Shown here piece by piece: positions 9,491 to 29,200 of a stretch of DNA of 29,722 nt. Below the pieces are notes generated by a model. It searched no databases. It worked only from the letters and a program-made list of their open reading frames with translations, and had not been told where the DNA came from. The DNA lies in the IMG/VR virus record IMGVR_UViG_2740892236_000001, positions 1 to 29,722 of that record; one strand, given 5' to 3'. The stretch is from a virus. Lineage: Duplodnaviria; Heunggongvirae; Uroviricota; Caudoviricetes. The translations under genes and the position numbers were made by a program. Each line of letters begins with the position of its first letter. Position 1 is the stretch's first letter.

Positions 9491-11257
9491 ATGAACACCA
9501 CACTGACACCCGCAGATCTCGATCCCCGTCGGCAGGCCATGCTGCTCTACTTTCAGGGATACCGCGTAGCCCGCATTGCTGAAATGCTGGGCGAGAAAGT
9601 TGCAACCGTTCACAGCTGGAAAAAACGCGACAAGTGGAGTGAATATGGGCCGCTGGATCAGATGCAGCTCACCACCGCCGCACGCTACTGCCAGCTCATC
9701 ATGAAGGAGCACAAAGAAGGGAAAGATTTCAAAGAGATTGACCTGCTGGCGCGCCAGTCTGAGCGCCACGCGCGGATCGGCAAGTTTAACAATGGCGGCA
9801 ACGAAGCCGACTTAAACCCTAACGTCGCCAACCGCAACAAAGGCCCGCGCCGTCAGCCGGAAAAAAATGTCTTCACCGATGAACAGATTGAGAAGCTGGA
9901 AGAAATCTTCCATTCCTCCATGTTCAACTACCAGCGCCACTGGTGGGAAGCCGGAAAAACCAACCGCATCCGCAACCTGCTGAAGTCACGCCAGATCGGC
10001 GCGACCTTCTATTTTGCCCGTGAAGCCCTGATTGACGCCCTGCTTACCGGACGTAACCAGATTTTCCTTTCTGCCAGTAAGGCACAGGCCCACGTCTTCA
10101 AACAGTACATCATCGACTTTGCCAAAGAAGTGGAGGTGGAGCTGAAAGGCGATCCGATGGTGCTTCCCAACGGGGCCACACTGTATTTCCTCGGCACCAA
10201 TGCCCGCACTGCCCAGAGTTATCACGGCAACCTGTATCTGGATGAATATTTCTGGATACCGAAATTCCAGGAGCTGCGCAAAGTGGCTTCCGGTATGGCT
10301 ATTCACAAGAAATGGCGACAGACCTATTTTTCCACGCCATCCAGCCTGACACACAGTGCTTATCCGTTCTGGTCCGGTGCGCTGTTCAACCGAGGGCGCA
10401 ACAAAGCCGATAAGGTGGACATCGACCTGTCCCACAGCAATCTGGCCCCCGGCCTGCTGTGCGCAGACGGGCAATACCGCCAGATAGTCACCGTGGAAGA
10501 TGCGGTACGCGGCGGCTGTAACCTGTTCGACCTCGACCAGTTGCGCATGGAGTACAGCCCGGACGAATACCAGAACCTGCTGATGTGCGAGTTCGTTGAC
10601 GATCTCGCATCTGTGTTCCCGCTCAGCGAATTGCAGGCGTGCATGGTGGACAGCTGGGAAGTCTGGACCGACTTTCATGCACTGGCCCTGCGCCCGTTTG
10701 GCTGGCGCGAAGTGTGGATCGGTTATGACCCGGCAAAAGGTACGCAGAACGGCGACAGCGCCGGATGCGTGGTGGTGGCACCGCCAGCCGTGCCAGGCGG
10801 TAAGTTCCGCATTCTTGAGCGTCACCAGTGGCGCGGGATGGACTTCCGCGCCCAGGCTGACGCCATCAAAAAACTGACCGAACAGTACAACGTGACCTAT
10901 ATCGGTATCGACTCAACCGGCGTCGGTCACGGGGTTTACGAGAACGTGAAAGCGTTCTTTCCTGCCGTCCGGGAGTTTGTCTACAACCCCAACGTTAAAA
11001 ACGCCCTGGTACTCAAGGCCTACGACATTATCAGCCACCGCCGTCTGGAGTTTGACGCCGGACATACCGACATTGCGCAGTCATTCATGGCAATCCGTCG
11101 CGCCACCACCGCCAGTGGCAACCGCCCGACCTACGAAGCCAGCCGCAGCGAAGAAGCCAGCCATGCCGATCTGGCATGGGCAACCATGCACGCACTGTTT
11201 AACGAACCGCTGCAGGGCGAGTCCGCCAATACCAGCAATATTGTGGAGATTTTTTGA
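9491..11257 (+). CDS. P: terminase ATPase (large) subunit P
   Basis: 588-aa ORF (P2 gpP ~590 aa), divergent from O and followed by Q. Confidence 0.9.
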   Translation: MNTTLTPADLDPRRQAMLLYFQGYRVARIAEMLGEKVATVHSWKKRDKWSEYGPLDQMQLTTAARYCQLIMKEHKEGKDFKEIDLLARQSERHARIGKFNNGGNEADLNPNVANRNKGPRRQPEKNVFTDEQIEKLEEIFHSSMFNYQRHWWEAGKTNRIRNLLKSRQIGATFYFAREALIDALLTGRNQIFLSASKAQAHVFKQYIIDFAKEVEVELKGDPMVLPNGATLYFLGTNARTAQSYHGNLYLDEYFWIPKFQELRKVASGMAIHKKWRQTYFSTPSSLTHSAYPFWSGALFNRGRNKADKVDIDLSHSNLAPGLLCADGQYRQIVTVEDAVRGGCNLFDLDQLRMEYSPDEYQNLLMCEFVDDLASVFPLSELQACMVDSWEVWTDFHALALRPFGWREVWIGYDPAKGTQNGDSAGCVVVAPPAVPGGKFRILERHQWRGMDFRAQADAIKKLTEQYNVTYIGIDSTGVGHGVYENVKAFFPAVREFVYNPNVKNALVLKAYDIISHRRLEFDAGHTDIAQSFMAIRRATTASGNRPTYEASRSEEASHADLAWATMHALFNEPLQGESANTSNIVEIF

Positions 11258-12297
11258 TGAAAGAACATATCGCGCCAGGCGAAACCGTAACTGCAGAAGA
11301 AACTAAAAAACCCGTTGCGGAGGCTTTCAGCTTTGGTGATCCCATTCCTGTACTGGACCGCCGCGAACTGCTGGACTATGTGGAATGCGTACAGACAGAT
11401 CGCTGGTATGAGCCGCCCGTCAGCTTTGACGGACTGGCGCGCACCTTCCGCGCCGCTGTGCATCACAGCTCCCCCATCAGTGTTAAACGTGACATTATCA
11501 GCAGTACCTATATTCCGCATCGTCTTCTCAGTCAGCAGGCATTTACCCGTTTTGTGCAGGACTATCTGGTTTTTGGTAACGGCTACCTGGAGAAGCGCAC
11601 GAACCGTTTCGGTGAAGTTATTTCGCTGGAGCCTGCACTGGCAAAATACACCCGGCGCGGGCTTGACCTTGAAACATACTGGTTTGTGCAATACAGCCTG
11701 ACGACACAGCCGTATCAGTTCACAAAAGGTAACGTCTTCCACCTGATGGAGCCGGATATCAACCAGGAGATTTATGGTCTGCCAGGTTACCTTTCTGCCA
11801 TTCCATCCGCCCTGCTCAACGAGTCCGCCACGCTGTTCCGCCGGAAGTATTACATTAACGGCAGCCATGCGGGCTTCATCATGTACATGACCGACGCCGC
11901 GCAGAACCAGGAGGATGTGAACAACCTCCGCAACGCAATGAAAAGTGCCAAAGGTCCTGGTAACTTCCGTAACCTTTTTATGTACTCGCCTAACGGCAAA
12001 AAGGACGGGCTTCAGATCATCCCGTTGTCGGAAGTCGCGGCGAAGGATGAATTTCTGAACATCAAGAACGTGAGTCGGGACGACATGATGGCGGCACACC
12101 GCGTACCGCCGCAAATGATGGGAATCATTCCCAACAACACTGGCGGCTTCGGTGATGTGGAAAAGGCGAGCCGTGTTTTCGTCCGCAATGAGCTGATGCC
12201 ACTACAAAAGCGACTGCAGGAGCTTAACAACTGGCTGGGTGAAGAGGTGATCCGTTTTGAAACCTATGACTTAGGACTTAAGAGCAAACGAGGCTGA
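11254..12297 (+). CDS. Q: portal protein Q
   Basis: 347-aa ORF (P2 gpQ ~344 aa); start overlaps the P stop. Confidence 0.9.
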   Translation: MMKEHIAPGETVTAEETKKPVAEAFSFGDPIPVLDRRELLDYVECVQTDRWYEPPVSFDGLARTFRAAVHHSSPISVKRDIISSTYIPHRLLSQQAFTRFVQDYLVFGNGYLEKRTNRFGEVISLEPALAKYTRRGLDLETYWFVQYSLTTQPYQFTKGNVFHLMEPDINQEIYGLPGYLSAIPSALLNESATLFRRKYYINGSHAGFIMYMTDAAQNQEDVNNLRNAMKSAKGPGNFRNLFMYSPNGKKDGLQIIPLSEVAAKDEFLNIKNVSRDDMMAAHRVPPQMMGIIPNNTGGFGDVEKASRVFVRNELMPLQKRLQELNNWLGEEVIRFETYDLGLKSKRG

Positions 12298-12335
12298 CAT
12301 ACTCATAACATCAATAACCGACCAACTCTCACAAC

Positions 12336-12369
12336 GCCTCAGCAGCATTCTGCTGGGCGTTTCTTTTTG
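12336..12369 (+). terminator. rho-independent terminator after Q
   Basis: Hairpin CAGCAG-CATT-CTGCTG with flanking GC pairs, followed by TTTCTTTTT (12360-12369). Confidence 0.5.
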
Positions 12370-12454
12370 CCCTGACATCTCCCCCCCTCCACTAAATGAG
12401 GCCGCCAGCGGGCCAGAGGCTGTGCCGGATTTTGGCCATTTTACCCCGTTGCGC

Positions 12455-12480
12455 GCGCTCGTATCCCCGCCACGCCTGCC
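12455..12480. other. candidate cos (cohesive-end) site
   Basis: Minus-strand GGCGTGGCGGGGA (complement of 12465-12477) matches the start of the 186/P2-type 19-nt cohesive end as I recall it, and sits just downstream of Q as in P2/186. Recalled, not searched. Confidence 0.4.
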
Positions 12481-12520
12481 CGCTTTGTGTAGTGGTTTTC
12501 ATGCACCTGCATGAGATATG

Positions 12521-12545
12521 AAAAAGCCCGCCTGAACTGGCGGGC
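12521..12545 (-). terminator. rho-independent terminator for the hotspot operon
   Basis: Perfect 7-bp stem GCCCGCC / GGCGGGC with 6-nt loop; on the minus strand it is followed by TTTTT (A-run 12521-12525 on plus), ~50 bp downstream of the 280-aa gene stop. Confidence 0.55.
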
Positions 12546-12593
12546 CGGAGCTAAAACGATCCTCAAACGATCATGCAAATTCATGCAGCATAG

Positions 12594-13436
12594 TCATGCA
12601 CTACCCTGCTCTGCGTCGCCAGCAGTCTTTCTCCTGCGTGCGGATGGCTTTTTACCACCCAACTTGCGGCAGTCTTTCCGGTCACGCGCTTCGTTTTCTT
12701 TAAATTTGTTATACGTTTCAGTATCAAAAAACGAGATGGTTTCAACTTCGTCTTTAGGGAGCAGCACACGGAAATCCTGGATATTCAGGCGCGACATCCC
12801 ACTGATAACACCGCTTTCAAGATAGTGCTGATGATAGTTTGTCGTGATATTTATCGTTAGGTCGTCTTTATCACGATATCCGCTCAGCAAGGGGAGAATT
12901 TCAAGGTGTTCCGACAATCCATTTTCCAACGCAGGGCAAGTCACCAGCCCTACATAGATTTTGCGTGATGAAAGTGTAGCAATGATAGGAAACTGGCGAG
13001 CTGATGCTTCCATGAGCAGCGATTCAAAAGCATTGTTTCCCACTGCCTTTGCCAGTGCATCCCAACGGCGATCCCCCTTTGAAGTACGGCGTTTGTTTAG
13101 CCAACCGAACAGCGCCGCGAGAACTATTGAAATCACAACCCACGCGATTTGCTTAATTTCATTGATGCGCTGCGGTTTATCGGTTGTGGTGGATAACATC
13201 CCGTTAAAGCTGTCTGGAGTCAGATTCAGCGCATTAGAAAACCAGCGAAACCCACCGCTGATGTTAAGAGCGAAGGTAAGGAAGCCGCCAGCGAGGAAAA
13301 AGACAATTCCCCATGCAGCCACAAAAAAATAAGCGTCCCAGCCATTGGAACGCTTATATCTATAACGTGTTGAAAGTGATAGGTTTACATATATAAAACC
13401 ACTAACCAAAATCACTGCTAAAAGTAATGTTGCCAT
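12594..13436 (-). CDS. uncharacterised membrane protein (3 predicted N-terminal TM helices + ~160-aa soluble C-terminal domain); hotspot cargo
   Basis: 280-aa ORF; TM candidates LLLAVILVSGFIYVNL, YFFVAAWGIVFFLAGGFLTFAL, IAWVVISIVLAALFGWL. Start ATG overlaps the upstream gene stop (TAATG). Lower GC than neighbouring phage genes by eye. No recognisable catalytic motif. Confidence 0.7.
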   Translation of the reverse strand: MATLLLAVILVSGFIYVNLSLSTRYRYKRSNGWDAYFFVAAWGIVFFLAGGFLTFALNISGGFRWFSNALNLTPDSFNGMLSTTTDKPQRINEIKQIAWVVISIVLAALFGWLNKRRTSKGDRRWDALAKAVGNNAFESLLMEASARQFPIIATLSSRKIYVGLVTCPALENGLSEHLEILPLLSGYRDKDDLTINITTNYHQHYLESGVISGMSRLNIQDFRVLLPKDEVETISFFDTETYNKFKENEARDRKDCRKLGGKKPSARRRKTAGDAEQGSA

Positions 13437-13654
13437 TATCGGGTTCTGTAATAATATTTTGCTTTAACAGTGCTCGTTTTGATGCCTTCAAGCTTATCCA
13501 TCTGATCTCGGATGGCTTTCATAGCTTCTTCGTTGGACAAATCTACGGACACAAAACCATCTTTACTCAGATTGAGCTTGTCCTGGTTCTCTTTCAGAAC
13601 CCGTGCCAAACGTTCAACTGGATTACCCAGCTTCAATGCGGCGATACTTGACAT
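13436..13654 (-). CDS. small uncharacterised protein, first gene of the hotspot operon
   Basis: 72-aa ORF with a strong SD (AAGGAGG, complement of 13659-13665) 4 nt from the ATG; translationally coupled to the 280-aa gene. Confidence 0.7.
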   Translation of the reverse strand: MSSIAALKLGNPVERLARVLKENQDKLNLSKDGFVSVDLSNEEAMKAIRDQMDKLEGIKTSTVKAKYYYRTR

Positions 13655-13829
13655 AACCCCTCCTTCTTATACGGCGCGGAAGTGTACACTTCGTCACCAG
13701 CAACCACAACAGCAAGTTCCTTATAACTAAGACAACCGTTTTAACTGTTGGTTGCGTTACTTAACTTAAGTTCATTGCCCCTAATCGCGCAAGATGTTTC
13801 TGCCTTAAACCACTGCATTTAGCATATAT

Positions 13830-13855: not shown

Positions 13856-13940
13856 AACAAAGGCAATTTCTAACGCCTCGCACGGCTCGTTGTTCAACCT
13901 TGCGGACGGTAAAAGCCAGTTTTATCGTCCGCAACGTTCG

Positions 13941-14174
13941 CTAATGCAGCCAGCTGTCGTCTTCCCACACCTTCTGCATAATTTTCATCACTTGTTTTCT
14001 TTCTTCGTCCAGTTGCAGTCCGGTCAGTTCCACACCGTTATAGCTACCTTTGCGGATACGAATTACCGTTTTTGGATACAGGGGGCGCAGATTGCGGTAA
14101 AGCTCGGATTCAAGGGCGTCCAGGGTAGACTGGCTAATCTTCTGCTCTTTATCGATCATTATTTCAATGCGCAT
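13941..14174 (-). CDS. DinI-family protein (Tum-like SOS module)
   Basis: From the internal Met: MRIEIMIDKEQKISQSTLDALESELYRNLRPLYP...WEDDSWLH, aligning with E. coli DinI as recalled (MRIEVTIAK...DALAGELSRR...WESADDW). SD GAGGTG upstream of the ATG at 14172-14174. The 101-aa ORF in the track is probably an N-terminal overcall. Confidence 0.75.
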   Translation of the reverse strand: MRIEIMIDKEQKISQSTLDALESELYRNLRPLYPKTVIRIRKGSYNGVELTGLQLDEERKQVMKIMQKVWEDDSWLH

Positions 14175-14184
14175 AAAAGTCACC

Positions 14185-14373
14185 TCAGCTGATGACATCC
14201 ATTGAGCGGTTGTATTCGTGGCTTCTGATTTTTGCCATGAGTTCATCAGTCAATTCAGAAACCCACTGCAGAGCCAGCCCCTTCTCTTCATCACTACACT
14301 CACTAGCCGCTACAAGCTTAAGAAAAAAATCAATGCGCTGGAGCTTCAAAGACTCCAAAAAATAGTCCTGCAT
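14185..14373 (-). CDS. small protein (62 aa), first gene of the SOS-box operon
   Basis: Internal ATG at 14371-14373 is preceded by AGGAGGA. The 96-aa ORF in the track extends upstream across the LexA box and is probably an overcall. Confidence 0.55.
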   Translation of the reverse strand: MQDYFLESLKLQRIDFFLKLVAASECSDEEKGLALQWVSELTDELMAKIRSHEYNRSMDVIS

Positions 14374-14416: not shown

Positions 14417-14432
14417 CTGTTTATATTTACAG
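14417..14432. promoter_or_regulatory. LexA box (SOS operator) CTGTTTATATTTACAG
   Basis: Perfect CTGT-N8-ACAG match to the E. coli LexA consensus, ~45 bp upstream of the 62-aa gene start and next to a TTTACA -35-like element on the minus strand. Confidence 0.6.
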
Positions 14433-14526: not shown

Positions 14527-16941
14527 TTAATACAAGTTTCGCCACTTATCATCTTCCTGCAAACGCTGGTTCCGATAGAAGATACGCAGGCCTGCTCCTG
14601 ACGGAATACTGCCGCCGCGAAGGAGTAAATCGACCTCTTTCTCGCTGCCATCAAATCCTCTGGACTTCAGTTCGTAGACGAGCTGCTGTCGCTGATGGTC
14701 TGTAATTCGCTGTTTGTAGTCTTTACGCCGTTTCGGTTTCACCAGGCGTAACCTTGCAGCCAGTTCCCGGCGCTCTTTTTTGCTCATACTGTGCAGGTAA
14801 TCGTGCAACTCCTTGTCATCCATGCGGGTAATGTCCGTCCTGGTATCCCCATCAGCTGATTTGTCTTTCCCTTGTTGGTTCAAATTTTCAGCAAGGGGAC
14901 AGTTATTGCCACGAGTCCAAGGGGCGCAAGCGCCCTGGTCGGCTGCCGCCTCCTGAACGTCAACGGCCTTACGAACCATTTTCCACTTCACCGCATGAGT
15001 GCAGATCTTGCCCTCTGCAATGGGTGACCAGATGCCATAAATACGAATACCGTGATCGCCATATGCGGTCGGTTCTTCGTTGATTTCATAAGCAGTTCTG
15101 ATGAGGTGATATTTGCGGGGAACCAGTACGCCGCCCTGCTTCATGATGTAGGTGGCAAAACAACCAGCATCAGCAGCAGCCAGGATTGCATCAAGGCGCG
15201 GGTTATCCAGTACCGGCGCACCTGCTTTTTTGTCCCCCTGTTGCCTTGCCGCCTGACCAGCCAGCAATCGCAGTTCACGGTAAGCCTGACGCCCCGGAAT
15301 GCCAAAGAAGCGGAATTGCTGAACACGATGCAGAGACGCCCAGGCATTAACGTATTCAGCGTTATCACGCAGGGATTTACCCGTTTCCTTGCTGATCTCG
15401 CCAGCCAGACCACGCCCGTCAATGTTCTTACTGATGTATTTCGCGATGTAGCTTGTTGGCGTACCTTTGCGCGGGTTTATCAGCTCAGACTTAAAGCGTG
15501 GCCCCGTGTTATTGCCCAGCTCCTCGCGGTCTTCACGGATGGCAAACTTACGCAACAATGCAGTAATGGCGCGGCGGTCTTTTTTACGCATGAAACACAA
15601 CAGGTGCCAGTGAACTGTGCCGTCATGATGCGGCTCAGCCACCCGCACGCCATACCAGCGCAACCCGGCTTTGTGCATAGCCTTACGAAATGCAGCAAAC
15701 ATGCCGACCAGATAATCGCTGCTTTGTCTTACTGTCGCGTTGGTCCAGGTCGGGTTTGGCCTGCCGTTATTTAGCGTGGAATGGAAACGTGACGGACAGG
15801 TGATGGTGTAGAAAACGGCGCAGTCACCACGCATTTCCGCGATAAGCTCCAGGCCTTTAACACAGGCCATCATCTCATTGCGGCGATGCGCCGGGTTGCT
15901 GCTGCTGGCGTTTACCACATCCTCCATGTTCAGCGTGTCGCCGTCTTCGTTCACCAGTTCATGAGAACGGAAAAACTCCAGCGACTTACGGCGCTGCTCA
16001 CGTTTATGCATCACGGCTTCATAGCTGACATAGGGAGATGCTTTTTTGCTGACCAGGCAGACAGCACGCAACTGCTCTTCCCGCCATTCGCAACGCATCT
16101 TCCATAATTTCCGATACCACCAGTCGGCGCACAGCATACGCGCCAGCGAACCCGGAATGAGTTCATAGGGCACAGGTTTGCGGCGGTTTCTTTTCCGGCG
16201 GAGTTGCTCAAACGCAGGCGGTATGACATCCAGTCGCAGGGTTTCTGCAGCCACCTTTTCCCATGTCTTGCGGATTTCTTCTGGCTTAACATCATCGGAG
16301 GCGTACAAATCACCACAAGCGGCATCAAGACACATGCTCATATGCGCAGCGACAAGGGTAGACAGGCGTTTCACCTGATCCTGACTCATTTCAGGCAGGA
16401 TCAGCAGACCGTCCAGCCCTTCATGGCTTGCCATAAAACGAAAAGATGCAGATAGCTGGCTGTCGCGTACATGCTCCAGTCGTTCCAGACATGGCTTAAT
16501 CGTCTCACGCAAATAGCGGGAATAAGCCTTTGGCCTGCCCAGGCTGCTGAAATATTCAATACGTTGCATCAGCGGCTTGCTGATATGGGAAGGCTGGGCG
16601 TTGACGTCGGCCAGAATGACCATGTCCGGATTAAAACGCTGCTGCTCATGCGCCATCTTTGCCCGGCTAATGAGCTTATCCTGCTCCATTTCGCGTTGGA
16701 CAGGATCACGGGATTCATTAAAGAAATAACGCTCCCAGACCTGATCACTCAGTGCCTCGCGGCGCAGTTGTTCCTGCTCGTTATCAGTAGCGTACAGAGT
16801 GATCAGGTTTGAAAGCGCAGAAACCGGCGCAACTTCCGCCGGGTCCAGATAAGGGTTAATGGCCTTTTTCGGGCTGTTCCATGAGAACGATGCGGCAGCT
16901 TCGTTAAAGCCGCAGCAGTTGTTCATATCGGCATGACTCAT
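14527..16941 (-). CDS. A: replication initiation protein A (rolling-circle HUH endonuclease)
   Basis: 804-aa ORF with HUH-like motif ([10 protein letters not shown]) and paired tyrosines (YIAKYISK) as in P2 gpA. Start overlaps the dam stop. Confidence 0.85.
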
Positions 16942-20919: not shown

Positions 20920-21936
20920 ATGACCATCAGAAAACAGCCGAACGGAAAATGGTTGTGTGAGTGCTATCCCAATGGACGCAATGGCAAGCGCGTGCGTAAG
21001 CAATTTGCCACGAAAGGCGAAGCCATAGCATTCGAAAACTTCACCATGAACGAAGTAAACAAAAAGCCATGGCTTGGTGAGAAGGAAGATCGGCGGCGAT
21101 TATCAGAAGTGATTGAGCAGTGGTATTCCCTATATGGTCAAACACTCGCAGACCCCAAACGCCTGATGGCGAAACTTAGAATTATCTGTAATGGTCTAGG
21201 CGATCCCATCGCCTCTGAGCTGACAGCAGGTGATTTCACAAAATATCGGGAAGCCAGATTAAAGGGGGAGGTCCAAAATGAAGACGGCTCGTTCATGTCA
21301 CCCGTTAAGCCCCGCACGGTAAACCTTGAACAGCGCAACCTATCATCTGTTTTTGGTACACTGAAAAAGCTGGGCCACTGGTCAGCCCCCAACCCGCTTG
21401 CCGGGCTTCCAACATTTAAAATTACGGAGGGTGAACTGGCGTTCCTAACCCCGGAGGAAATTAAACGTCTGCTGGATGCCTGTGCTGATTCTCAAAGCCC
21501 CAGTCTGCTAATGATTGCAAAAATATGCCTAGCAACCGGTGCTCGTTGGAGTGAAGCTGAAAACCTGCAGGGCCATCAACTATCGAAATACCGGATTACC
21601 TATACAAAGACCAAGGGTAAAAAAAACCGTACCGTACCGATATCTCAGGATCTGTACAACGAGCTACCCAAAAACCGAGGGAAATTATTCACACCATGCA
21701 GAAAAGCCTTTGAACGGGCGGTAAAACGGGCCGCTATTGAACTACCGGAAGGCCAATGCACCCACGTCCTGCGCCATACATTTGCCAGCCATTTTATGAT
21801 GAACGGTGGGAACATACTCGTTTTACGTGATATTTTAGGGCACTCAGATATTAAAATGACGATGATTTATGCACACTTCTCTCCAGACCACCTGGAGGAT
21901 GCAGTAACAAAAAACCCTCTTTATAACTTAATTTAA
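20920..21936 (+). CDS. int: tyrosine integrase (P2/186 Int family)
   Basis: 338-aa ORF with C-terminal HVLRHTFASHFMMNGGNILVLRDILGHSDIKMTMIYAHF (catalytic R/H/Y region); N-terminus resembles P2 Int. Confidence 0.9.
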   Translation: MTIRKQPNGKWLCECYPNGRNGKRVRKQFATKGEAIAFENFTMNEVNKKPWLGEKEDRRRLSEVIEQWYSLYGQTLADPKRLMAKLRIICNGLGDPIASELTAGDFTKYREARLKGEVQNEDGSFMSPVKPRTVNLEQRNLSSVFGTLKKLGHWSAPNPLAGLPTFKITEGELAFLTPEEIKRLLDACADSQSPSLLMIAKICLATGARWSEAENLQGHQLSKYRITYTKTKGKKNRTVPISQDLYNELPKNRGKLFTPCRKAFERAVKRAAIELPEGQCTHVLRHTFASHFMMNGGNILVLRDILGHSDIKMTMIYAHFSPDHLEDAVTKNPLYNLI

Positions 21937-21950
21937 GTAAACAATGGATC

Positions 21951-22601
21951 ATGAACATAAACGAGATAATTAAGTATTCTGTCGCGATAATTACCCCGAT
22001 CATACAGATGCTCGCGGTAAGATCCGGCTGGGTTTTCCCCAAAGATAAGATTTTCAACTCGCGCAAAAACATTAGCGAGTTTGCATACAATCTATATAAG
22101 AATACTGAAGATCCCAAAATCAAGAAAGTTGCATATAATTATGGTATTGCTGCAATAACAAAAGATAAGAACCTAACTCCAGAACAGAGAGAGATTCTTT
22201 TAGGTGTTAACGATCCAGTTAATGACATTGATAACTATAGCAAGTGTCAAAAACTAATTTCTATTAGTAGTGAAAAACAAATATTTAAATGGACAAAAAA
22301 AAGATATCGCTTTTGGATATATAGAAAATCTATAAAGCTGATAAGCTTAACATTCTATTTTATTGGCGGTTTTATAACTTCCATACCTTTTGTATACGAA
22401 GGATTAGTAACCCAACATATTTTAGAGAAAATTAATAAACTTACTGATATGCAAAGATTAGGAATGTCCAGCTACTTTTTTGCACTTGGGATTTGTATAG
22501 CACTGATGAACCTGCATAAATTTTCGACTATTCGTATCGCTGAAAAAACCATAAGATCTAATCTCCGTAAACCCACAGATTTCAACTCAAGCAGCGGATA
22601 A
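21951..22601 (+). CDS. uncharacterised membrane protein in AT-rich DNA between int and att
   Basis: 216-aa ORF with two predicted TM helices (LISLTFYFIGGFITSIPFVY; MSSYFFALGICIALMNL). Markedly AT-rich relative to the prophage core, by eye. Confidence 0.6.
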   Translation: MNINEIIKYSVAIITPIIQMLAVRSGWVFPKDKIFNSRKNISEFAYNLYKNTEDPKIKKVAYNYGIAAITKDKNLTPEQREILLGVNDPVNDIDNYSKCQKLISISSEKQIFKWTKKRYRFWIYRKSIKLISLTFYFIGGFITSIPFVYEGLVTQHILEKINKLTDMQRLGMSSYFFALGICIALMNLHKFSTIRIAEKTIRSNLRKPTDFNSSSG

Positions 22602-22603
22602 TG

Positions 22604-22624
22604 TGGCGACAGATTGGCGACAGA
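22604..22624. promoter_or_regulatory. direct repeat TGGCGACAGA x2 (11-bp periodicity); candidate integrase arm-type sites
   Basis: Read directly from the sequence, ~100 bp from the att core on the int side. Confidence 0.3.
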
Positions 22625-22716
22625 GCATTAAAAATGAGTAAAACGGACAAACATAAGATAATACTAACTTGATGATTTTAAACGCAAGTTAATGTTTTTG
22701 TTATAGTGAAAATGGT

Positions 22717-22754
22717 ATGTAGGAATTTCGGACGCGGGTTCAACTCCCGCCAGC
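22717..22754 (+). other. partial tmRNA (ssrA) 3' end: candidate prophage att core
   Basis: ATGTAGGAATTTCGGACGCGGGTTCAACTCCCGCCAGC matches my recollection of the E. coli tmRNA 3' end (T-arm and acceptor strand) but lacks the terminal TCCACCA; upstream is phage DNA, not tmRNA. Confidence 0.6.
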
Positions 22755-22883
22755 CAATCATGATTGGACGGTGTAAGGACAACACCAACAAAAACAGGAA
22801 GTTAGAAGTCTCAGCAAAACACCGACCAGACGGTGAGGAGACATAAAAGGATACGCAAAGGAGCCGCGGCTCCTGGTAACATG

Positions 22884-22908
22884 AAAGCCCACAGATGTGG
22901 GCTTTTTC
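22884..22908. terminator. hairpin terminator between the att segment and the autotransporter gene 3' end
   Basis: AAGCCCAC-AGAT-GTGGGCTT followed by TTT on the plus strand; could terminate either convergent transcript. Confidence 0.5.
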
Positions 22909-22916
22909 GTTGATGG

Positions 22917-25900
22917 TCAGAACGACCAGTTCACACCAGCTACCGCGTTCCACGGGGATTCCACACCGGCACTATGGCTATACCCCACCCCAAGATGCCC
23001 GCTTAACGTACTGCTGAATGAGGCTTTAATACCTGCCTGGTATATTCCACGTCTGCCCGACAAATAATTGACGAAATTACCGTCACTATTCACTTTCACC
23101 CGGTTATCATCGACAAATTCTTTGCGCACAGCCGCCTTCAGCCACGGCTCAACTTCCATACCGTTCCCCAGACGCATGTTGTAACTCAGCGTTGCGCCCA
23201 GTTCACGATATATACTGCGGGTATCGACTGATTTCGATTTCATGCCATTGGATAAATGATATTCGGGGTTATCAGCGGTGAACCCCGTTAACGATGCATA
23301 CGGCGTCAGGTTCCAGTTACCATCGGTAAATCGCATCCCGGTTTCAATGTGACCGCCCAGCCCGTTGCTGTGGTAACTGCCATTGGCGGCTCCACCGCTG
23401 CTCATTTTACCTGCTACGTTACTTTTAAAACGGTTCAGCTTCACGACACCGTCCAGATAGAAACCACTTTCATGTTCCCAACTGGCATAGCCGCCCAGAG
23501 AATAACTGCCCACACTGCCATGTCCTCCGCGATCAAAACCGATATGTGAATGGGAATAGCCCATAAAAGCGCCTAGCGTGGTAATTCCTTCAGGAATATC
23601 ATTACGGCTGTCGATCCCCACTGTCATTCCGGTCAGCGTCTGCTCAAACCCGGCACCCGCATCGGTGGTGACATTATTACGGGTGTTATACGTCGCCCCC
23701 CAGACATTATTGTTGTGTGGACTCGCTTTCATTATGTTCAACCGCTCGCGAATACTGTTTAGCTCAGCATCAAATACCAACGGTAATGTTGCTGCCATAT
23801 TGAGTACGGCTGCCGTAGAAGGCGTAATGCGTTTCTCCGGAACGGGTGTCGGCGTTGGATCGGGAGTAGGGTCTGGTTTTGGATTTGGGTCTGGCTTTGG
23901 ATCGGGTTTTGGGTCTGGCTTTGGATTTGGGATGGGGTCCGGGTTGGGTTTGACATCATTGGTCAGGTTCCAGTTGCTGTTGCCGTCACTTTTCAGGACA
24001 TACTCATAGGTCCCAAGATCAACGAAACCGCCGGTATTGCCCAGCGTAAACGAAGCATCCCCTCCCCCTGTTTTCACCAGCGTCATCGCGTCGTCAGACT
24101 GTGGGCTGACGCCGGTATCCTGAACAAAGATTTTAAAATTACCAGTGGCGTTGTTGTTGACGACCAGTTGATCGCCCCGGGAGCCTGCAACGTTGGTATG
24201 CAGGTAGAAATTACCGCTACCGGAAAGTTCATTGGTTGTCAGCGTATTGTAGATACCGTTAGTTGTGGCAGGCGCTGCTGTTTGTGCTGACAAATAAACA
24301 TCACCGTCGTTGAGTAGCAAACTGTTTACTCTATATTCGCAGTTGCTGGTACCTGCACAGGAATTATTGCTGTTAAGCCAGACACTGCCCCGGCTGGCAG
24401 CCGTCAGGTCGGCAAGCGTGGTATCGACGCCATTTCCCAGAGTCAATGTCGCGCTATCGGTAATCCGGACCGCCCCTTCGAGTTTAACTGGCGTAACATT
24501 ATCCCGTGGCGTCATTAACGACAGGCTTCCTGTCGCGCCACTGACCGATGCATCCGCCAGCGTACCTGCGTAGACGATTGCCGTACCGCCAGCGACCTGG
24601 AGATCTTCTGCCCGGGCCAGAGCCTGAAACTCATCTTTTGACCGCCCAAGGGTATATTGCCCGCCAGAGTTAACCTTTGTGGCGGAGTCCTGACCCAGGT
24701 TTTGCATTGCCCCACCCTTGCCAACCGTGGAGTCGCGAGCTTCGGTACCTGCTAATACCAATAAATTACCGCCATTTTCCAGCAACATATTGGTCGCTAA
24801 ATTGCCGGAAATGGAAAAAGTACCGTACTGGTGAGTACCGCTGATTTCAATACCGTTAGCCGTGCTCGTCTGGAGAGCGGCACCGCTGTTCTGGACGATA
24901 TCTGTCGCTTTGCCATTATCGTTGACTGTCAGCGTACCGCCTTCATTGATCTTTGTTTTTATTGCCTCTCCGTTAGCTGAAACTGTTTGTATTCCGCCGT
25001 CGTTAATTGTTGTCTCATTCGCCACACCCTCGACAATTTGTTCACCGCCGGTGAGCGTCGTGCCTGTCGCAGTGGCTTTTGTTTTGACGATCTCCCGTCC
25101 GCCCATATTGACCTGTGTTTTGTCAGAAGAGGTGTCTGACTCCACGGTTAACACGCCGCCATTTGCCAGCAGGATATTGTTCGCCGCACCCTGCTCGATG
25201 CTGAACGCGACGCCATCCGCGCGTGTTCCTGTGACCCGCGTCGCCCTGGTGGTTGCAACCAAAGCGCCCTGGCTACTCTGCTGTATCCCCGTTGCGCTGC
25301 CTTTCTCCCGCACATCGAGTGTGCCGCCGTCATTAAGCACCGAGTTTTCAGCCAGACCGCCCTCATTAACTACCTGTGAACCCCCATTAATAATGGAACC
25401 TTCCGCTGTCCCGTTTGCCATAATTTGTTGTAGGCCAGAGACGATATCGGTATTGATTGCCTTACCATAATTCTGAACGGTTTGCGTGCCACCATTGATG
25501 TGTGTTTTCTCTGTTGACCCACCATCAACAATTTGTTCACCACTTTCGATATTTGCTTCAGTGGCTAAACCATATACCGTTTGCTTGCCACCTTTGATAT
25601 TTGCTTTATCAGAAGTGGCACTGGCATATATTGTTTGGGTGCCAGCACTATTGAGTACAGTGCCAACATCTTTTCCATAAACATCCATTTTGCCGTTGGC
25701 ATTAATAATCGTGTCAACTGCGCGGGAACCAGTGACGACTGTTAATGAGCCAGCGTTTTCCAGCACTACATTTTTAGCTTCTGAATTCCTGATGTAGAAA
25801 GCATCACCATAACTGTTGGTTCCTTCGATAAGTGTTCCGGAGGTCGTGGAAGCAATTAATGCGCCGCCGGATTGTTGCTCAACATGCTTAGCCTCACCAC

Positions 25901-27506
25901 CGTCCTGAACCTCCAGAACGCCGCCATTATTAAGTCTGGTGCTATCTGTTTTAGCCTCCTTCTGGACAATCAGCTTACCGCCAGTATCAATGGTAGTATT
26001 TTTCGCCGAGGTTTTAGCCACTACCGTCAGTTCGCCGGTATTTTCCAGCACAACATAATTAGCCTCCCCTCCGGTAATAGTGAAGTGAGAGAGCTTGTTG
26101 TATCCTTCGATATCAGTCCCTGCACCCGTGTTGGCAACTAAAGCACCGCCCGTCTCCTGGTTAACCCCATGTGCAATACCGCCGGTATAGACAATCAGCG
26201 AGCCTCCGGCGCTAATATTGCTGCCAATTGCCGTACCATCTTTCTCAACAACCTGCCGGCTCCCGGAGGATATAATTGTTGTGTCAGCTTTCCCGCCGCT
26301 TTTGATATTTTGCGTTCCGCTGTTGATATTGGTGCCTGTGGCTATGCCATAATTATTAATATTCTGTGTGCCACCATTAATTATGGTATTTGTCGCGTTT
26401 CCTGCAACATCCATAACCCCGCCATTATCTATTCGGGTCGCATCAGCTTTAGCATTGGTTAAAACTGACATTGTTCCTTTATCTTTAATAATCGTCTTGT
26501 TTGCCGAACCATATGCGTTTATGTCTAAATGACCACCGTTTTCCAGCAACACATTGTCTGCCACGTGATTGTGGATGGAGAATGCACCTTCACTATTCGT
26601 ACCGCTCACCGTCGTACCGTTAGTGTTAGTTTTTAAAATTGCACCATCGTGCTGGGTAACATTTGTTGCCGTACCACCACTAACATCAAGCACGCCACCA
26701 GAATAAACTTCAATAACATCCGAGGTGCTGGTGTTATCAACAATTTGCGTGCCACCAGAATAGATATGCGTATTTTTTGCCGTTGACTTACTATTCAGAG
26801 ACTGAGTTCCGCCTTCAATCGTCGTGTCCAGCGCACGGCTCTCATATACTCTTTGCTCACCGCCATTTTTAATGGTTGTTGTTTCTACTGTGCTCTGTTC
26901 AACATACTGTCGACCACCATTTATGGTTGTGTTCGTTGCCAGACTTCCTTGTACTACGTCCTGAGAGCCAGACTTATTTATCGTTGTACCATCAGCATGC
27001 CCTTGAACTTTTACTATCTGGCTACCACCATCAATGAGTATTCCATTCGCACTCCCTCCCTCTACGCGTGAAGCACCGCCCTTAATTGTCGTTCCATTGC
27101 TGATACCCCCTTTATAAACGTCCTGATTGCCACTCTCGATTGTCGTACCTGTGGAAATACCCCCGTCATGAATTGACTGTCTGCCACCGTTAATGGTTGT
27201 ATTATTAGCCTGCCCCACAAAATTGTTATGACTTCCTATATCTTGATATCCACCAGATTCAATAAGACTTCCATTAGATACCCCGCCATGAACATTCTGC
27301 TGGCCATGGTTGATAATATGAGTGTTATTTGTTGTACCTCGTTCATCCACTTTTTGGTTGCCATCTACAGTCTCATCGTTTACCACACCAATAACATTAG
27401 TAGTGAAGGCAGCCATCCCGGGCGGGGCATATATCAAGGCAGATATCAATAAGGAAAGTACTGAGCGGCGACAATAATAGGGACTGGTCCTGTTCATAAA
27501 TTTCAT
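22917..27506 (-). CDS. large AIDA-I-type autotransporter adhesin (YpjA-like)
   Basis: C-terminal beta-barrel ending ...AGVNWSF, Pro-rich (PxPKPD) linker, long repetitive passenger domain. Probable start at MKFMNRTSPYYCRRSVLSLLISALIY (extended signal peptide); the track ORF extends to 27626. Resemblance to K-12 YpjA is from memory. Confidence 0.85.
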   Translation of the reverse strand: MKFMNRTSPYYCRRSVLSLLISALIYAPPGMAAFTTNVIGVVNDETVDGNQKVDERGTTNNTHIINHGQQNVHGGVSNGSLIESGGYQDIGSHNNFVGQANNTTINGGRQSIHDGGISTGTTIESGNQDVYKGGISNGTTIKGGASRVEGGSANGILIDGGSQIVKVQGHADGTTINKSGSQDVVQGSLATNTTINGGRQYVEQSTVETTTIKNGGEQRVYESRALDTTIEGGTQSLNSKSTAKNTHIYSGGTQIVDNTSTSDVIEVYSGGVLDVSGGTATNVTQHDGAILKTNTNGTTVSGTNSEGAFSIHNHVADNVLLENGGHLDINAYGSANKTIIKDKGTMSVLTNAKADATRIDNGGVMDVAGNATNTIINGGTQNINNYGIATGTNINSGTQNIKSGGKADTTIISSGSRQVVEKDGTAIGSNISAGGSLIVYTGGIAHGVNQETGGALVANTGAGTDIEGYNKLSHFTITGGEANYVVLENTGELTVVAKTSAKNTTIDTGGKLIVQKEAKTDSTRLNNGGVLEVQDGGEAKHVEQQSGGALIASTTSGTLIEGTNSYGDAFYIRNSEAKNVVLENAGSLTVVTGSRAVDTIINANGKMDVYGKDVGTVLNSAGTQTIYASATSDKANIKGGKQTVYGLATEANIESGEQIVDGGSTEKTHINGGTQTVQNYGKAINTDIVSGLQQIMANGTAEGSIINGGSQVVNEGGLAENSVLNDGGTLDVREKGSATGIQQSSQGALVATTRATRVTGTRADGVAFSIEQGAANNILLANGGVLTVESDTSSDKTQVNMGGREIVKTKATATGTTLTGGEQIVEGVANETTINDGGIQTVSANGEAIKTKINEGGTLTVNDNGKATDIVQNSGAALQTSTANGIEISGTHQYGTFSISGNLATNMLLENGGNLLVLAGTEARDSTVGKGGAMQNLGQDSATKVNSGGQYTLGRSKDEFQALARAEDLQVAGGTAIVYAGTLADASVSGATGSLSLMTPRDNVTPVKLEGAVRITDSATLTLGNGVDTTLADLTAASRGSVWLNSNNSCAGTSNCEYRVNSLLLNDGDVYLSAQTAAPATTNGIYNTLTTNELSGSGNFYLHTNVAGSRGDQLVVNNNATGNFKIFVQDTGVSPQSDDAMTLVKTGGGDASFTLGNTGGFVDLGTYEYVLKSDGNSNWNLTNDVKPNPDPIPNPKPDPKPDPKPDPNPKPDPTPDPTPTPVPEKRITPSTAAVLNMAATLPLVFDAELNSIRERLNIMKASPHNNNVWGATYNTRNNVTTDAGAGFEQTLTGMTVGIDSRNDIPEGITTLGAFMGYSHSHIGFDRGGHGSVGSYSLGGYASWEHESGFYLDGVVKLNRFKSNVAGKMSSGGAANGSYHSNGLGGHIETGMRFTDGNWNLTPYASLTGFTADNPEYHLSNGMKSKSVDTRSIYRELGATLSYNMRLGNGMEVEPWLKAAVRKEFVDDNRVKVNSDGNFVNYLSGRRGIYQAGIKASFSSTLSGHLGVGYSHSAGVESPWNAVAGVNWSF
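23857..23952 (-). repeat. tandem 6/18-nt repeat encoding the PDPKPDPKPDPNPKPDPTPDP linker
   Basis: Visible tandem GGGTCTGGCTTTGGAT-type repeats; the plus-strand 'GSGFGSGFGSG' ORF is its antisense image. Confidence 0.6.
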
Positions 27507-27899
27507 CCTCTGAAAAGTGAATACTGAGTAGCGTTTAAGCGACCTTAGCTTTGCTGCAACATCAGCCCACAGGCACCAGACCAGGGGATTCATCCTGAAG
27601 AGACAGCGCAAGTGTATTGTGTTCACCGCTCATCAAAGACATCATGATGAAATGATGATATTCCGCATAAGAATGAGGCATTTTTTAAACGCAGTGCGCT
27701 GAAGTGTGGTTGGATAAAAAAGTCAATCCATTCAGGAAATACGGGCGTATTCTTTTCTTTCGACAATGAGGCCGTTGGCAAAATAAAATGATTTACATAA
27801 TCGTTTCTGATGAATATCTTCTGCTCACATAAAAATCACACAATAACTTTGAGATCGCAGATTGTTTTACTTTTACAGCATTCGTCCCCCCATTGTTGG

Positions 27900-28135
27900 G
27901 CAAATATAGATTGGGCCAGAGCACGAAAGTTAATACCACGTTCGCACAGCTCCTCCAACAGCACGACAAGATGCCACATACTGCGCCCCAGTCGGTTCAG
28001 TTTACAGACTAGCAGTGCGTTCCCTGCCGATGATGTCCTGACCAGTTTTTTCAGTCCGGACCTCCTGCCACGGTTTTACGTTGAAGTGGTAACCCTGAGC
28101 ACGCAGTTCTTCAGTCAGGCGTGGTACACCGTAAC
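27900..28135 (-). pseudogene. serine recombinase (Pin/Hin-type invertase) remnant, frameshifted and truncated
   Basis: Manual minus-strand translation gives NRGRRSGLKKLVRTSSAGNALLVCKLNRLGRSMWHLVVLLEELCERGINFRALAQSIF, matching the conserved ...GDTLVVWKLDRLGRS...L..EL.ERGINF.SLTDSI core of Pin/Hin as I recall it. No intact N-terminus; stops and frame changes upstream. Confidence 0.5.
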
Positions 28136-28408
28136 GCTGTTATTGCTGGGTAAGATCAAAAAACTTTCAGGCAGCTAAGGAAAGTTGAACCAGACATTAG
28201 ATGAAATATTTCAACCAATTACAGCACCAATTCAGTCACTGCCAGCCCACCAAATAAATCAAGGGGTTACATGAAAACGTAGCCCCTTTTTCTTTGGTAG
28301 TGACACTAAAATGGATGTAGTGTGAAGAATAATCCCGTTTACTCAATCAATAATACATATTGTTTCAATCTACGTTATTATCTCTTTGTAAAAATTGCCA
28401 TTTATTAA

Positions 28409-29200
28409 TCATTGAAAACTGCTTTTAGAACTTGATACAACGGGACTAGTCACAACAGGACTATTCTCAACGGGATCATCCTCAGAGGAACTATCATCAA
28501 AGTCATCATCCATAAATAAAATATCATCGAATGGTGCCACGCCCGTGATGAGTTTTATTTTATTATTACGATCAGTCAATACTCCACTTAAACCGTTTTC
28601 GCTCACAGGTTTTAATGATTTTTCATTACTCTTGTTGTAAGCAGGCGCATTAAAAATACACGGAGTATCAACATCAAACAATGACGTTCCCCAGTTCACA
28701 TATTGAATATCATAGTTACTGAAGTTCTGTCCAGAAAAGAAGCACCCCTTAAAATCCAATCCACGTAAATTATATAAACCACCCTCTTCTTTTTGGAGAG
28801 TAATGTTAATTTTGGCTATCTCCCGGACATCATCGCCATTTTTGTATTTGAATACCGTTTCAAGATGTTCTCCAGACAGCTTGACTTCAGGAAATAATTT
28901 GAAATCAAAGCCTATATTATTATGTGTCAACGTAGATGAACAAAAAATGGAAAAAGCTTGCAGTGCTGAATTATAGCTATCGATTTTATCTTGAGGCTGA
29001 GCTCTTGGTAAAAACTTATAGCAACACTCATAAAAATTAAACAGAAGCTCTGAAGACCTTGTATTTTTATCAAATAATACCCCCTTGAACTCATTCACAA
29101 ACGCATCTTTTTTTTCTTGAATATCTATGGGGTGTTCCTTTGACTCTGACAAAGATGAAATCTCATCTATTTTGTTTTCATATGAATTACGTGATTCCAT
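28409..29200 (-). CDS. hypothetical protein with pentapeptide-repeat-like segment and acidic C-terminal tail; AT-rich island gene
   Basis: 263-aa ORF; NLRGLDFKGCFFSGQNFSNYDIQYV resembles pentapeptide repeats; C-terminus DDDFDDSSSEDD. Very AT-rich. Confidence 0.6.
   Translation of the reverse strand: MESRNSYENKIDEISSLSESKEHPIDIQEKKDAFVNEFKGVLFDKNTRSSELLFNFYECCYKFLPRAQPQDKIDSYNSALQAFSIFCSSTLTHNNIGFDFKLFPEVKLSGEHLETVFKYKNGDDVREIAKINITLQKEEGGLYNLRGLDFKGCFFSGQNFSNYDIQYVNWGTSLFDVDTPCIFNAPAYNKSNEKSLKPVSENGLSGVLTDRNNKIKLITGVAPFDDILFMDDDFDDSSSEDDPVENSPVVTSPVVSSSKSSFQ

Follow-up and report, generated by a model that had tools for sequence, protein, structure and literature searches.

The Two-Gene Cassette and Its Place in the Prophage

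A cassette of two adjoining genes, encoding a small protein of 72 amino acids (aa) and a larger one of 280 aa, lies between the probable cohesive-end site (cos) and the replication gene A of a 186-like prophage of the P2 family, which makes up most of the 29,722-nucleotide (nt) stretch analyzed here (IMG/VR record IMGVR_UViG_2740892236_000001, positions 1 to 29,722; hereafter, the window). The stop codon of the small gene overlaps the start codon of the large gene (TAATG). The small gene has a strong Shine–Dalgarno sequence (Table 1), and sites of the GGAGG type precede its start codon in four of the four diverged copies aligned. No Shine–Dalgarno sequence is seen for the 280-aa gene, which is consistent with translational coupling; a coupling that would fix the ratio of the two products fits this arrangement. 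Downstream, a terminator-like hairpin begins 48 bases 3' of the stop codon of the large gene and ends the transcription unit just before cos. The GC content of the small (0.425) and the large gene (0.463) is below that of the portal, terminase, and A genes (0.52–0.57). All these features, i.e., two open reading frames (ORFs), the TAATG overlap, a strong Shine–Dalgarno sequence, a terminator of its own, and a low GC content, had been listed in an earlier note on this DNA, and all of them were found in place.

The window allele was compared with an 80%-identical allele from the Escherichia coli CP8-3 prophage, yielding a proportion of synonymous differences (pS) of 0.71, i.e., near saturation, and a proportion of nonsynonymous differences (pN) of 0.064; for the cytoplasmic domain of the large protein, pN/pS was 0.04. 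The high pS together with the low pN indicates that both proteins are strongly constrained and that the genes are true coding genes. The adjoining dinI gene is nearly identical in the two prophages (pS 0.08), so phages with almost the same backbone have exchanged the cassette. The cos-proximal segment (~12449–12604 in the window) is shared by 1243 of 5426 complete E. coli genomes, and the cassette is present in 52 of these 1243 loci, the small and the large gene occurring together in 52 of 52. The locus is, as previously supposed, a variable island, with alleles swapped into near-identical backbones. Overall, the pair is a genuine, mobile, and strongly conserved two-gene accessory module.

In the window, tail, lysis, and head genes are followed by the terminase and portal genes, cos, the pair, the dinI-like gene and orf62, and gene A; the RefSeq annotation of a near-identical E. 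coli prophage agrees with this order. The slot is therefore the one originally proposed, between cos and the portal gene on one side and the SOS genes and gene A on the other. The sequence assigned to cos probably resembles the P2/186 cos core. Past the integrase gene, positions 21951–29200 presumably represent host DNA, with a 1569-aa ORF at 22917–27626 on the minus strand.

The interval between the genes for gpA and gpQ (the portal) of P2-like phages is a hotspot with 1650 arrangements and experimentally validated defense systems (Rousset et al. 2022, PMC9122126). Within it, the interval between cos and the portal gene (12298–12457, empty in the window) makes up a second, far more variable cargo slot. 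In the relatives, it harbors bSEFIR, Septu PtuA, a retron II-A effector, HEC-06, PDC-S49, PDC-S59, and HEPN-like proteins (loci L002, L014, L017, L018, L023, L032, L035, L039, and L046), with the pair as the constant element. The gene following Septu PtuA was taken as PtuB, and that following the retron II-A effector as a reverse transcriptase. Likewise, Klebsiella phage ST15-OXA48phi14.1 carries a 99.7%-identical copy of the cassette and an extra SEFIR gene between cos and the portal gene. When the neighboring cargo proteins of the P2-like relatives were compared with models of defense proteins, six of ten gave strong matches and two more gave weak ones. The suggestion that P2-like prophages exchange defense systems at this slot is supported by these relatives, which carry known defense genes in the A-to-Q interval.

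Table 1. The cassette, its signals, and the neighboring features of the prophage (positions in the window).
Feature	Position	Strand	Basis or remark
Small partner gene, 72 aa	13436-13654	-	ORF; phrog_9843 (unknown function)
Large gene, 280 aa	12594-13436	-	ORF; three predicted transmembrane helices and Sm-like beta-barrel
Shine–Dalgarno sequence AAGGAGG of the small gene	13659-13665	-	Four bases 5' of ATG; sequence reading
Intrinsic terminator-like hairpin, 8 pairs (7 G-C), then TTTTTC	12546-12525	-	Terminator scan
Upstream region travelling with the cassette	13655-13801	-	80%-identical E. coli allele aligns to ~13801
Palindrome ACTTAAGT with conserved flanks	13764-13771	-	~110 nt upstream of the small gene
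Conserved hairpin lacking a U-tract	13902-13932	-	Directly after the dinI-like stop codon; within predicted spacer fold
Perfect LexA-type box CTGTTTATATTTACAG	14417-14432	.	Before orf62/dinI; sole exact match in the window
dinI-like gene	13941-14174	-	Pfam DinI, 1e-22; phrog_189/phrog_698 for dinI-like gene and orf62
orf62	14185-14373	-	Upstream of the dinI-like gene, same strand; RefSeq annotation of near-identical prophage
Gene A	14527-16941	-	
Methylase, CII-, CI-, and integrase-type genes	Beyond gene A; integrase 20920-21936	-	
Terminase ATPase	9491-11257	+	
Portal	11254-12297	+	
Portal-operon terminator	12338-12357	+	
Probable cos cohesive-end sequence GGCGTGGCGGGGATACGAG	12458-12476	-	Within conserved cos-proximal segment

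The Protein Family and Its Small Partner

When 1.84 billion representative proteins were searched with the family profile, 3234 clusters were retrieved (2476 of them at E ≤ 1e-10), nearly all of 230–300 aa and matched over the full length. In IMG/VR, a relative is encoded on 241 viral contigs. A scan with the strict family motif, using one genome per species (about 100,000 species genomes), returned 104 hits and 103 loci with a patchy distribution over the Enterobacterales, Vibrionaceae, Shewanella, Neisseriales, Pseudomonas, Legionella, Alphaproteobacteria, and metagenome-assembled genomes of Acidobacteriota; one contig of this set is labelled Nostoc.

Neither protein of the window has a significant match in Pfam or NCBIfam, and both belong to PHROGs of unknown function. 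The family profile has no match among all PDB sequences, and ten distant family members, named "hypothetical", have no match in Pfam. The view that the cassette fits no named family thus holds against Pfam and NCBIfam as well as PADLOC (see below). In RefSeq, one E. coli copy of the large protein goes under "DUF2207 domain-containing", and in many NCBI records the 72-aa protein goes under "multidrug ABC transporter ATPase"; both designations look like artefacts of annotation. The DUF2207_C match itself (16 bits vs. a cut-off of 33) was dismissed as noise stemming from transmembrane (TM) composition.

Of 96 matches to the large gene, 89 have a small ORF immediately before them (−38 to +14 bp), the exceptions being truncated or frameshifted, and gaps between the two genes are typically −4 to +9 in the relatives. 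An iterated profile joins the partners of 125 of 175 loci. In the remaining loci, e.g., those of Pseudomonas and Acidobacteriota, the upstream small ORFs are of like size and display the pattern ..VVGRGTxxID..E..; an in-register hhalign alignment of the VVGRGT-type and the enterobacterial partners (E 3e-4) is suggestive, not conclusive. Judging from this gene arrangement, a partner of the 72-aa type is obligate for the large protein. The combination of a small partner with a membrane protein, pointed out earlier for the window, is deeply conserved across the relatives. Frameshifted copies of the large gene were found in L029 and L048, where the partner is intact, and in L073, where no partner was detected, so the module decays occasionally.

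Members of the family have been catalogued before. E. coli homologs of the pair are listed simply as hypothetical proteins in Table S5A of Rousset et al. 2022 (PMC9122126), and diverged members constitute systems #43 and #57 of its Table S5B, with 93 and 75 occurrences, respectively. The family profile matches these systems at E 4e-66 and 1.5e-44, and their identity to the window protein is 34% and 21%. Neither of them is among the systems cloned and tested in the same work, whose Table S2 lacks the family motif. A search of Rousset 2022, Vassallo 2022, DefensePredictor 2026, and Moura de Sousa 2026 with their supplements, by accession and peptide, returned the Rousset entries only. As to the novelty claimed for the cassette, the family is indeed unnamed, but its diverged members were already on record.

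Predicted Architecture of the Two Proteins

Hydrophobic segments of the 280-aa protein are located at approximately residues 3–21, 36–58, and 96–113. Its AlphaFold2 model (predicted local distance difference test, pLDDT, 80) comprises three TM helices, two linker helices, a beta-barrel (approximately residues 149–238, predicted to be cytoplasmic), and a C-terminal helix followed by a basic disordered tail. Since the loops after TM1 and TM3 are rich in K/R, the predicted orientation is N-out/C-in, which places the Sm-like domain in the cytoplasm. Hence, the 280-aa product is predicted to be an inner-membrane protein with its conserved parts, i.e., the TM1–TM2 loop and the barrel, on the cytoplasmic side. 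The most conserved motifs are RYxxKRSxGWDAYF in the TM1–TM2 loop and TLxSRKxYVG and LSGYRDKD in the barrel; the periplasmic loop (19–80 aa across the family) is the most variable part.

In the model, the barrel possesses the hallmarks of the Sm/LSm/Hfq fold, namely an N-terminal helix followed by a strongly bent five-stranded antiparallel sheet. The protein lacks Sm1/Sm2 motifs and has no match to the Pfam LSM clan at E ≤ 1, and a Foldseek search against viral structures yielded weak matches to Sm-like domains and no full-length relative. The three N-terminal TM helices expected from the earlier reading are matched by the hydrophobicity segments and the model, whereas the soluble domain, described there as having no placeable motif, can now be placed by its predicted fold.

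The 72-aa protein is basic and soluble. Its model, of moderate confidence (pLDDT 72), shows a helix, a short hairpin, and a long helix; it has no structural match and no DNA-binding or known antitoxin fold. The partner carries 14 K/R and 10 D/E residues, and the cytoplasmic domain of the large protein 13 K/R and 19 D/E.

Genomic Contexts of the Relatives

Most phage copies of the pair reside in the gpA-to-cos slot of P2-like phages, including some whose portal is only ~50% identical to that of the window. Other phage copies occupy very different slots. The L058 copy is flanked by the tail genes K and I, and that of L089 by lysis and terminase genes; in Vibrio (L007), the pair is part of a lambdoid early region, in Cronobacter phage phiES15 it separates the integrase gene from attP, and in L074, L077, L081, and Aeromonas L008 it precedes the tape-measure gene and adjoins lipoprotein genes. 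In the Aeromonas caviae prophage (L008–L010, 6809–8846), the pair takes up all the space separating the tape-measure gene from a 249-aa tail-region gene. This interval is the usual place of the tail-assembly chaperone genes, and none was called separately there. A role as tail-assembly chaperone was considered and rejected because the pair is found in very different slots elsewhere and the protein is membrane-bound.

Outside phages, a 24%-identical pair is found on IncC conjugative plasmids of Salmonella, e.g., pSTY1-2010K-1587 (L177, 4872–7789), directly downstream of a gene for a 547-aa AAA-family ATPase and adjoining a mercury-resistance operon. Chromosomal copies form two-gene islets with no conserved neighbor. 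In Pectobacterium (L004–L006, 7300–8820), a LexA box, dinI, and the pair stand alone, flanked by genes for an MscS-family channel and a transporter; this islet, which has no phage genes nearby, appears to be what remains of the right end of a P2-like prophage now lost. Overall, the position in the P2 hotspot proposed for the cassette is confirmed, but the family extends well beyond P2: it is huge and also forms chromosomal islets beside housekeeping genes.

Regulation and a Possible SOS Link

The dinI-like gene and the 72-aa gene are separated by a 285-nt spacer in which no terminator is predicted. The stem of the hairpin at the dinI-proximal end of this spacer has been kept through sequence changes in the E. 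coli and Enterobacter copies, and the scan did not call it a terminator; it may end, pause, or stabilize the transcript. The first strong terminator after the LexA-boxed promoter is thus the one after the pair, which makes SOS-driven read-through plausible, and the pair may belong to an SOS-controlled transcription unit stretching from the LexA box down to 12525. Upstream of the 72-aa gene, a scan for consensus sigma-70 promoters gave no hit. Likewise, no late-promoter dyad TGT-N12-ACA occurs upstream of the pair (the counts being at chance level), and an Rfam scan of the region yielded no match. The ACTTAAGT element is kept in four diverged copies, including the phage-free Pectobacterium islet, and the palindrome may serve as an operator.

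In several diverged lineages (L101, L100, L117, L118, L072, and L091), a good LexA box is situated directly before the small gene, with no dinI between them; in L101, it is 50 nt from the start codon. Within 1 kb, a box is present upstream in 8 of 68 clusters and downstream in 2; further upstream, there is none. Hence, the LexA link seems to be recurrent, not universal.

This recurrence would suit an SOS-linked toxin–antitoxin or dormancy module with no phage-specific role, in which a membrane toxin lowers the membrane potential (cf. TisB and DinQ), the small protein is the antidote, and the pair stabilizes a mobile element or aids survival after DNA damage. The classic gene order (the small gene first, overlapping the larger one), the presence of the pair on plasmids, phages, and islets, and the complementary charges of the partner and the cytoplasmic domain also speak in favor of such a module. 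However, the partner lacks a DNA-binding or known antitoxin fold, the known SOS membrane peptides are small and do not resemble a 280-aa protein containing a conserved, folded domain, and LexA boxes accompany just the 8 clusters mentioned; the frameshifted large genes that keep their partner are neutral at best. Such a module is regarded as an unlikely explanation.

Alternatively, the pair could serve the lytic development of its own phage after induction, e.g., by stopping division or respiration, timing lysis, or preventing re-injection of the progeny. Three features agree with this possibility: the location downstream of the SOS-controlled orf62 and dinI, from which no predicted terminator separates the pair; its identical placement in P2-like phages with much-diverged portals, suggestive of a long association; and the N-out/C-in topology with three TM helices, which is that of class I holins. 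Against it, the pair is absent from ~96% of the E. coli P2-type loci and is therefore dispensable; it is also present in phage-free chromosomal loci and on plasmids, and the large protein has 280 aa with a folded domain and is encoded far from the lysis genes. A service to lytic growth is, accordingly, quite improbable.

A Possible Role in Phage Conflict

The explanation favored here, with a probability of roughly 40%, is that the large protein acts in phage conflict as a membrane effector, which the SOS response boosts and the small partner holds in check. This defense reading rests on location and association and is reasonable on these grounds, as is the view of the pair as a candidate phage-against-phage weapon. 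Sm-like domains usually form six- or seven-membered rings, so the 280-aa protein probably assembles as a ring. Such a ring would gather 18–21 membrane helices in an MscS-like design capable of opening a leak or pore. The basic 72-aa partner would bind the acidic cytoplasmic face, holding the assembly closed or unassembled. If this restraint were lost, via a phage cue or loss of the partner, the membrane would be depolarized or disturbed, and this disturbance could block genome entry or abort the infection by a competing phage. The module is probably transcribed at least in part from the LexA-controlled orf62–dinI promoter, so that it would be boosted on DNA damage or prophage induction.

The association extends to the chromosomal copies: a known defense system is located at most two genes away in about 7 of 57 dereplicated loci. 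These neighbors include a short prokaryotic Argonaute (pAgo, L149), HsdR with HsdS of a type I restriction–modification system (L165), a cyclase of the cyclic-oligonucleotide-based antiphage signaling system (CBASS) with NucC, AbiLi, AriA, PDC-S42, and an SspH/mad-like protein (L148).

A number of observations weigh against the role in phage conflict. The excess of defense neighbors is modest, as counted over 57 loci with no matched background. No match was found in PADLOC-DB v2.0.0 for either window protein at E ≤ 1, nor in PADLOC for the ten distant family members at E ≤ 0.1, and the papers and supplements searched contain no phenotype or phage assay of the family. SOS-dependent expression is unusual for a defense protecting the lysogen, and the LexA box of the window is ~760 bp upstream of the 72-aa gene, behind two genes. 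The ring, the pore, and the inhibition by the partner are inferred only. Not all cargo of the P2 hotspot serves defense, as partition systems and a toxin show (PMC9122126), so location by itself is weak evidence for defense; of the P2-hotspot systems newly cloned by Rousset et al., three out of eight were active (PMC9122126).

The surroundings of the chromosomal copies belong to the same list and bring in one more explanation. The 109 proteins flanking these copies represent 133 Pfam families, mostly metabolic, with four integrases among them, and in Pseudomonas the pair keeps the same metabolic neighbors in several species, a stable context that looks more like that of a physiological gene pair. 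The pair could then be a membrane complex of host physiology or lysogenic conversion, e.g., a channel for ions or solutes or an envelope-stress device, based on a membrane-tethered Sm-like ring that possibly binds RNA or nucleotides. Apart from the predominance of housekeeping genes next to the pair, a huge and taxonomically broad family with one constant architecture, very strong purifying selection, and a domain order like that of MscS argue for such a complex. The patchy distribution in the strict-motif species scan and the repeated carriage in cargo slots of phages and plasmids argue against it, as do the lack of a Pfam LSM match and of homology to MscS. The latter homology was rejected (hhalign probability of 0.2% against the MscS-family protein of L004, no Pfam hit), which also tells against the pore of the phage-conflict effector. 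On balance, a physiological complex appears rather unlikely.

The effector of phage conflict, if active, would be a compact addition to the known repertoire of defense and exclusion, and its design, three membrane helices with an Sm-like ring domain, is without counterpart in characterized systems. A very large family, with no entry in Pfam and wrong names in public records, would thereby obtain its first function. Through LexA, a membrane effector would be joined to prophage induction, a little-explored stage of phage competition. One may go further and see in the family a new class of at least 2476 sequence clusters, with the pair as its first example, of membrane-tethered Sm-like ring proteins with an obligate partner, which form a gated MscS-like pore and act as a phage- or SOS-triggered immune effector on phages, plasmids, and islets; this broader proposition is doubtful. 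Even if defense is not its function, a membrane-anchored Sm-like protein with an obligate partner represents unexplored bacterial cell biology.

Comparison with Known Systems

The closest known counterparts are systems #43 and #57 (Rousset 2022), which belong to the same family and to the same gpA-to-gpQ hotspot, #57 being also accompanied by a small protein of the VVGRGT type. Both are deeply diverged alleles annotated as having no Pfam domain and "2 TM". The old and tin genes of P2 share the slot between gene A and cos, and their proteins and mechanisms are unrelated to those considered here.

The RexA/RexB system of phage lambda is a two-gene prophage system combining a polytopic inner-membrane protein with a soluble partner, and loss of membrane potential has been proposed as its outcome. 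The pair likewise unites a polytopic membrane protein, judging from the predicted TM helices, with a partner that the overlapping genes would co-express. At the same time, no homology to RexA, RexB, or another characterized effector was found in Pfam, NCBIfam, PADLOC, or the PDB sequences; RexB possesses four TM helices but lacks a folded domain in the cytoplasm, and RexA is ~279 aa long, as compared with 72 aa for the partner here.

Effectors of CBASS and Pycsar such as Cap15 carry N-terminal TM helices and a small cytoplasmic beta-barrel with possible roles in ligand binding or oligomerization. The likeness consists in the TM helices and the barrel, but the barrel here is Sm-like and the module includes no cyclase or signal gene; the one chromosomal relative adjoining a CBASS operon does so as a neighbor only. 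MscS features three TM helices in the N-out/C-in orientation followed by a cytoplasmic Sm-like beta domain. The predicted architecture and overall size of the 280-aa protein are similar, which signifies a likeness of design, not membership.

As for gene order, the pair follows that of type II toxin–antitoxin systems, whereas an antitoxin or DNA-binding fold is lacking. Class I holins are proteins of ~70–110 aa with three TM helices, N-out/C-in, encoded in the lysis cassette; the topology is alike, but a protein of 280 aa with a folded domain, encoded beside cos, falls outside this class.

The superinfection-exclusion morons HK97 gp15, P22 SieA, and T4 Imm are single small inner-membrane proteins with neither a folded cytoplasmic domain nor an obligate partner. 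The pair shows no homology to them, and it has in common with them an inner-membrane protein carried as dispensable phage cargo. The position just before the tape-measure gene, which it occupies in several siphovirus-type prophages, is also that of HK97 gp15. Overall, although not homologous to their characterized members, the pair is best filed among the prophage-borne membrane-protein cargo modules.

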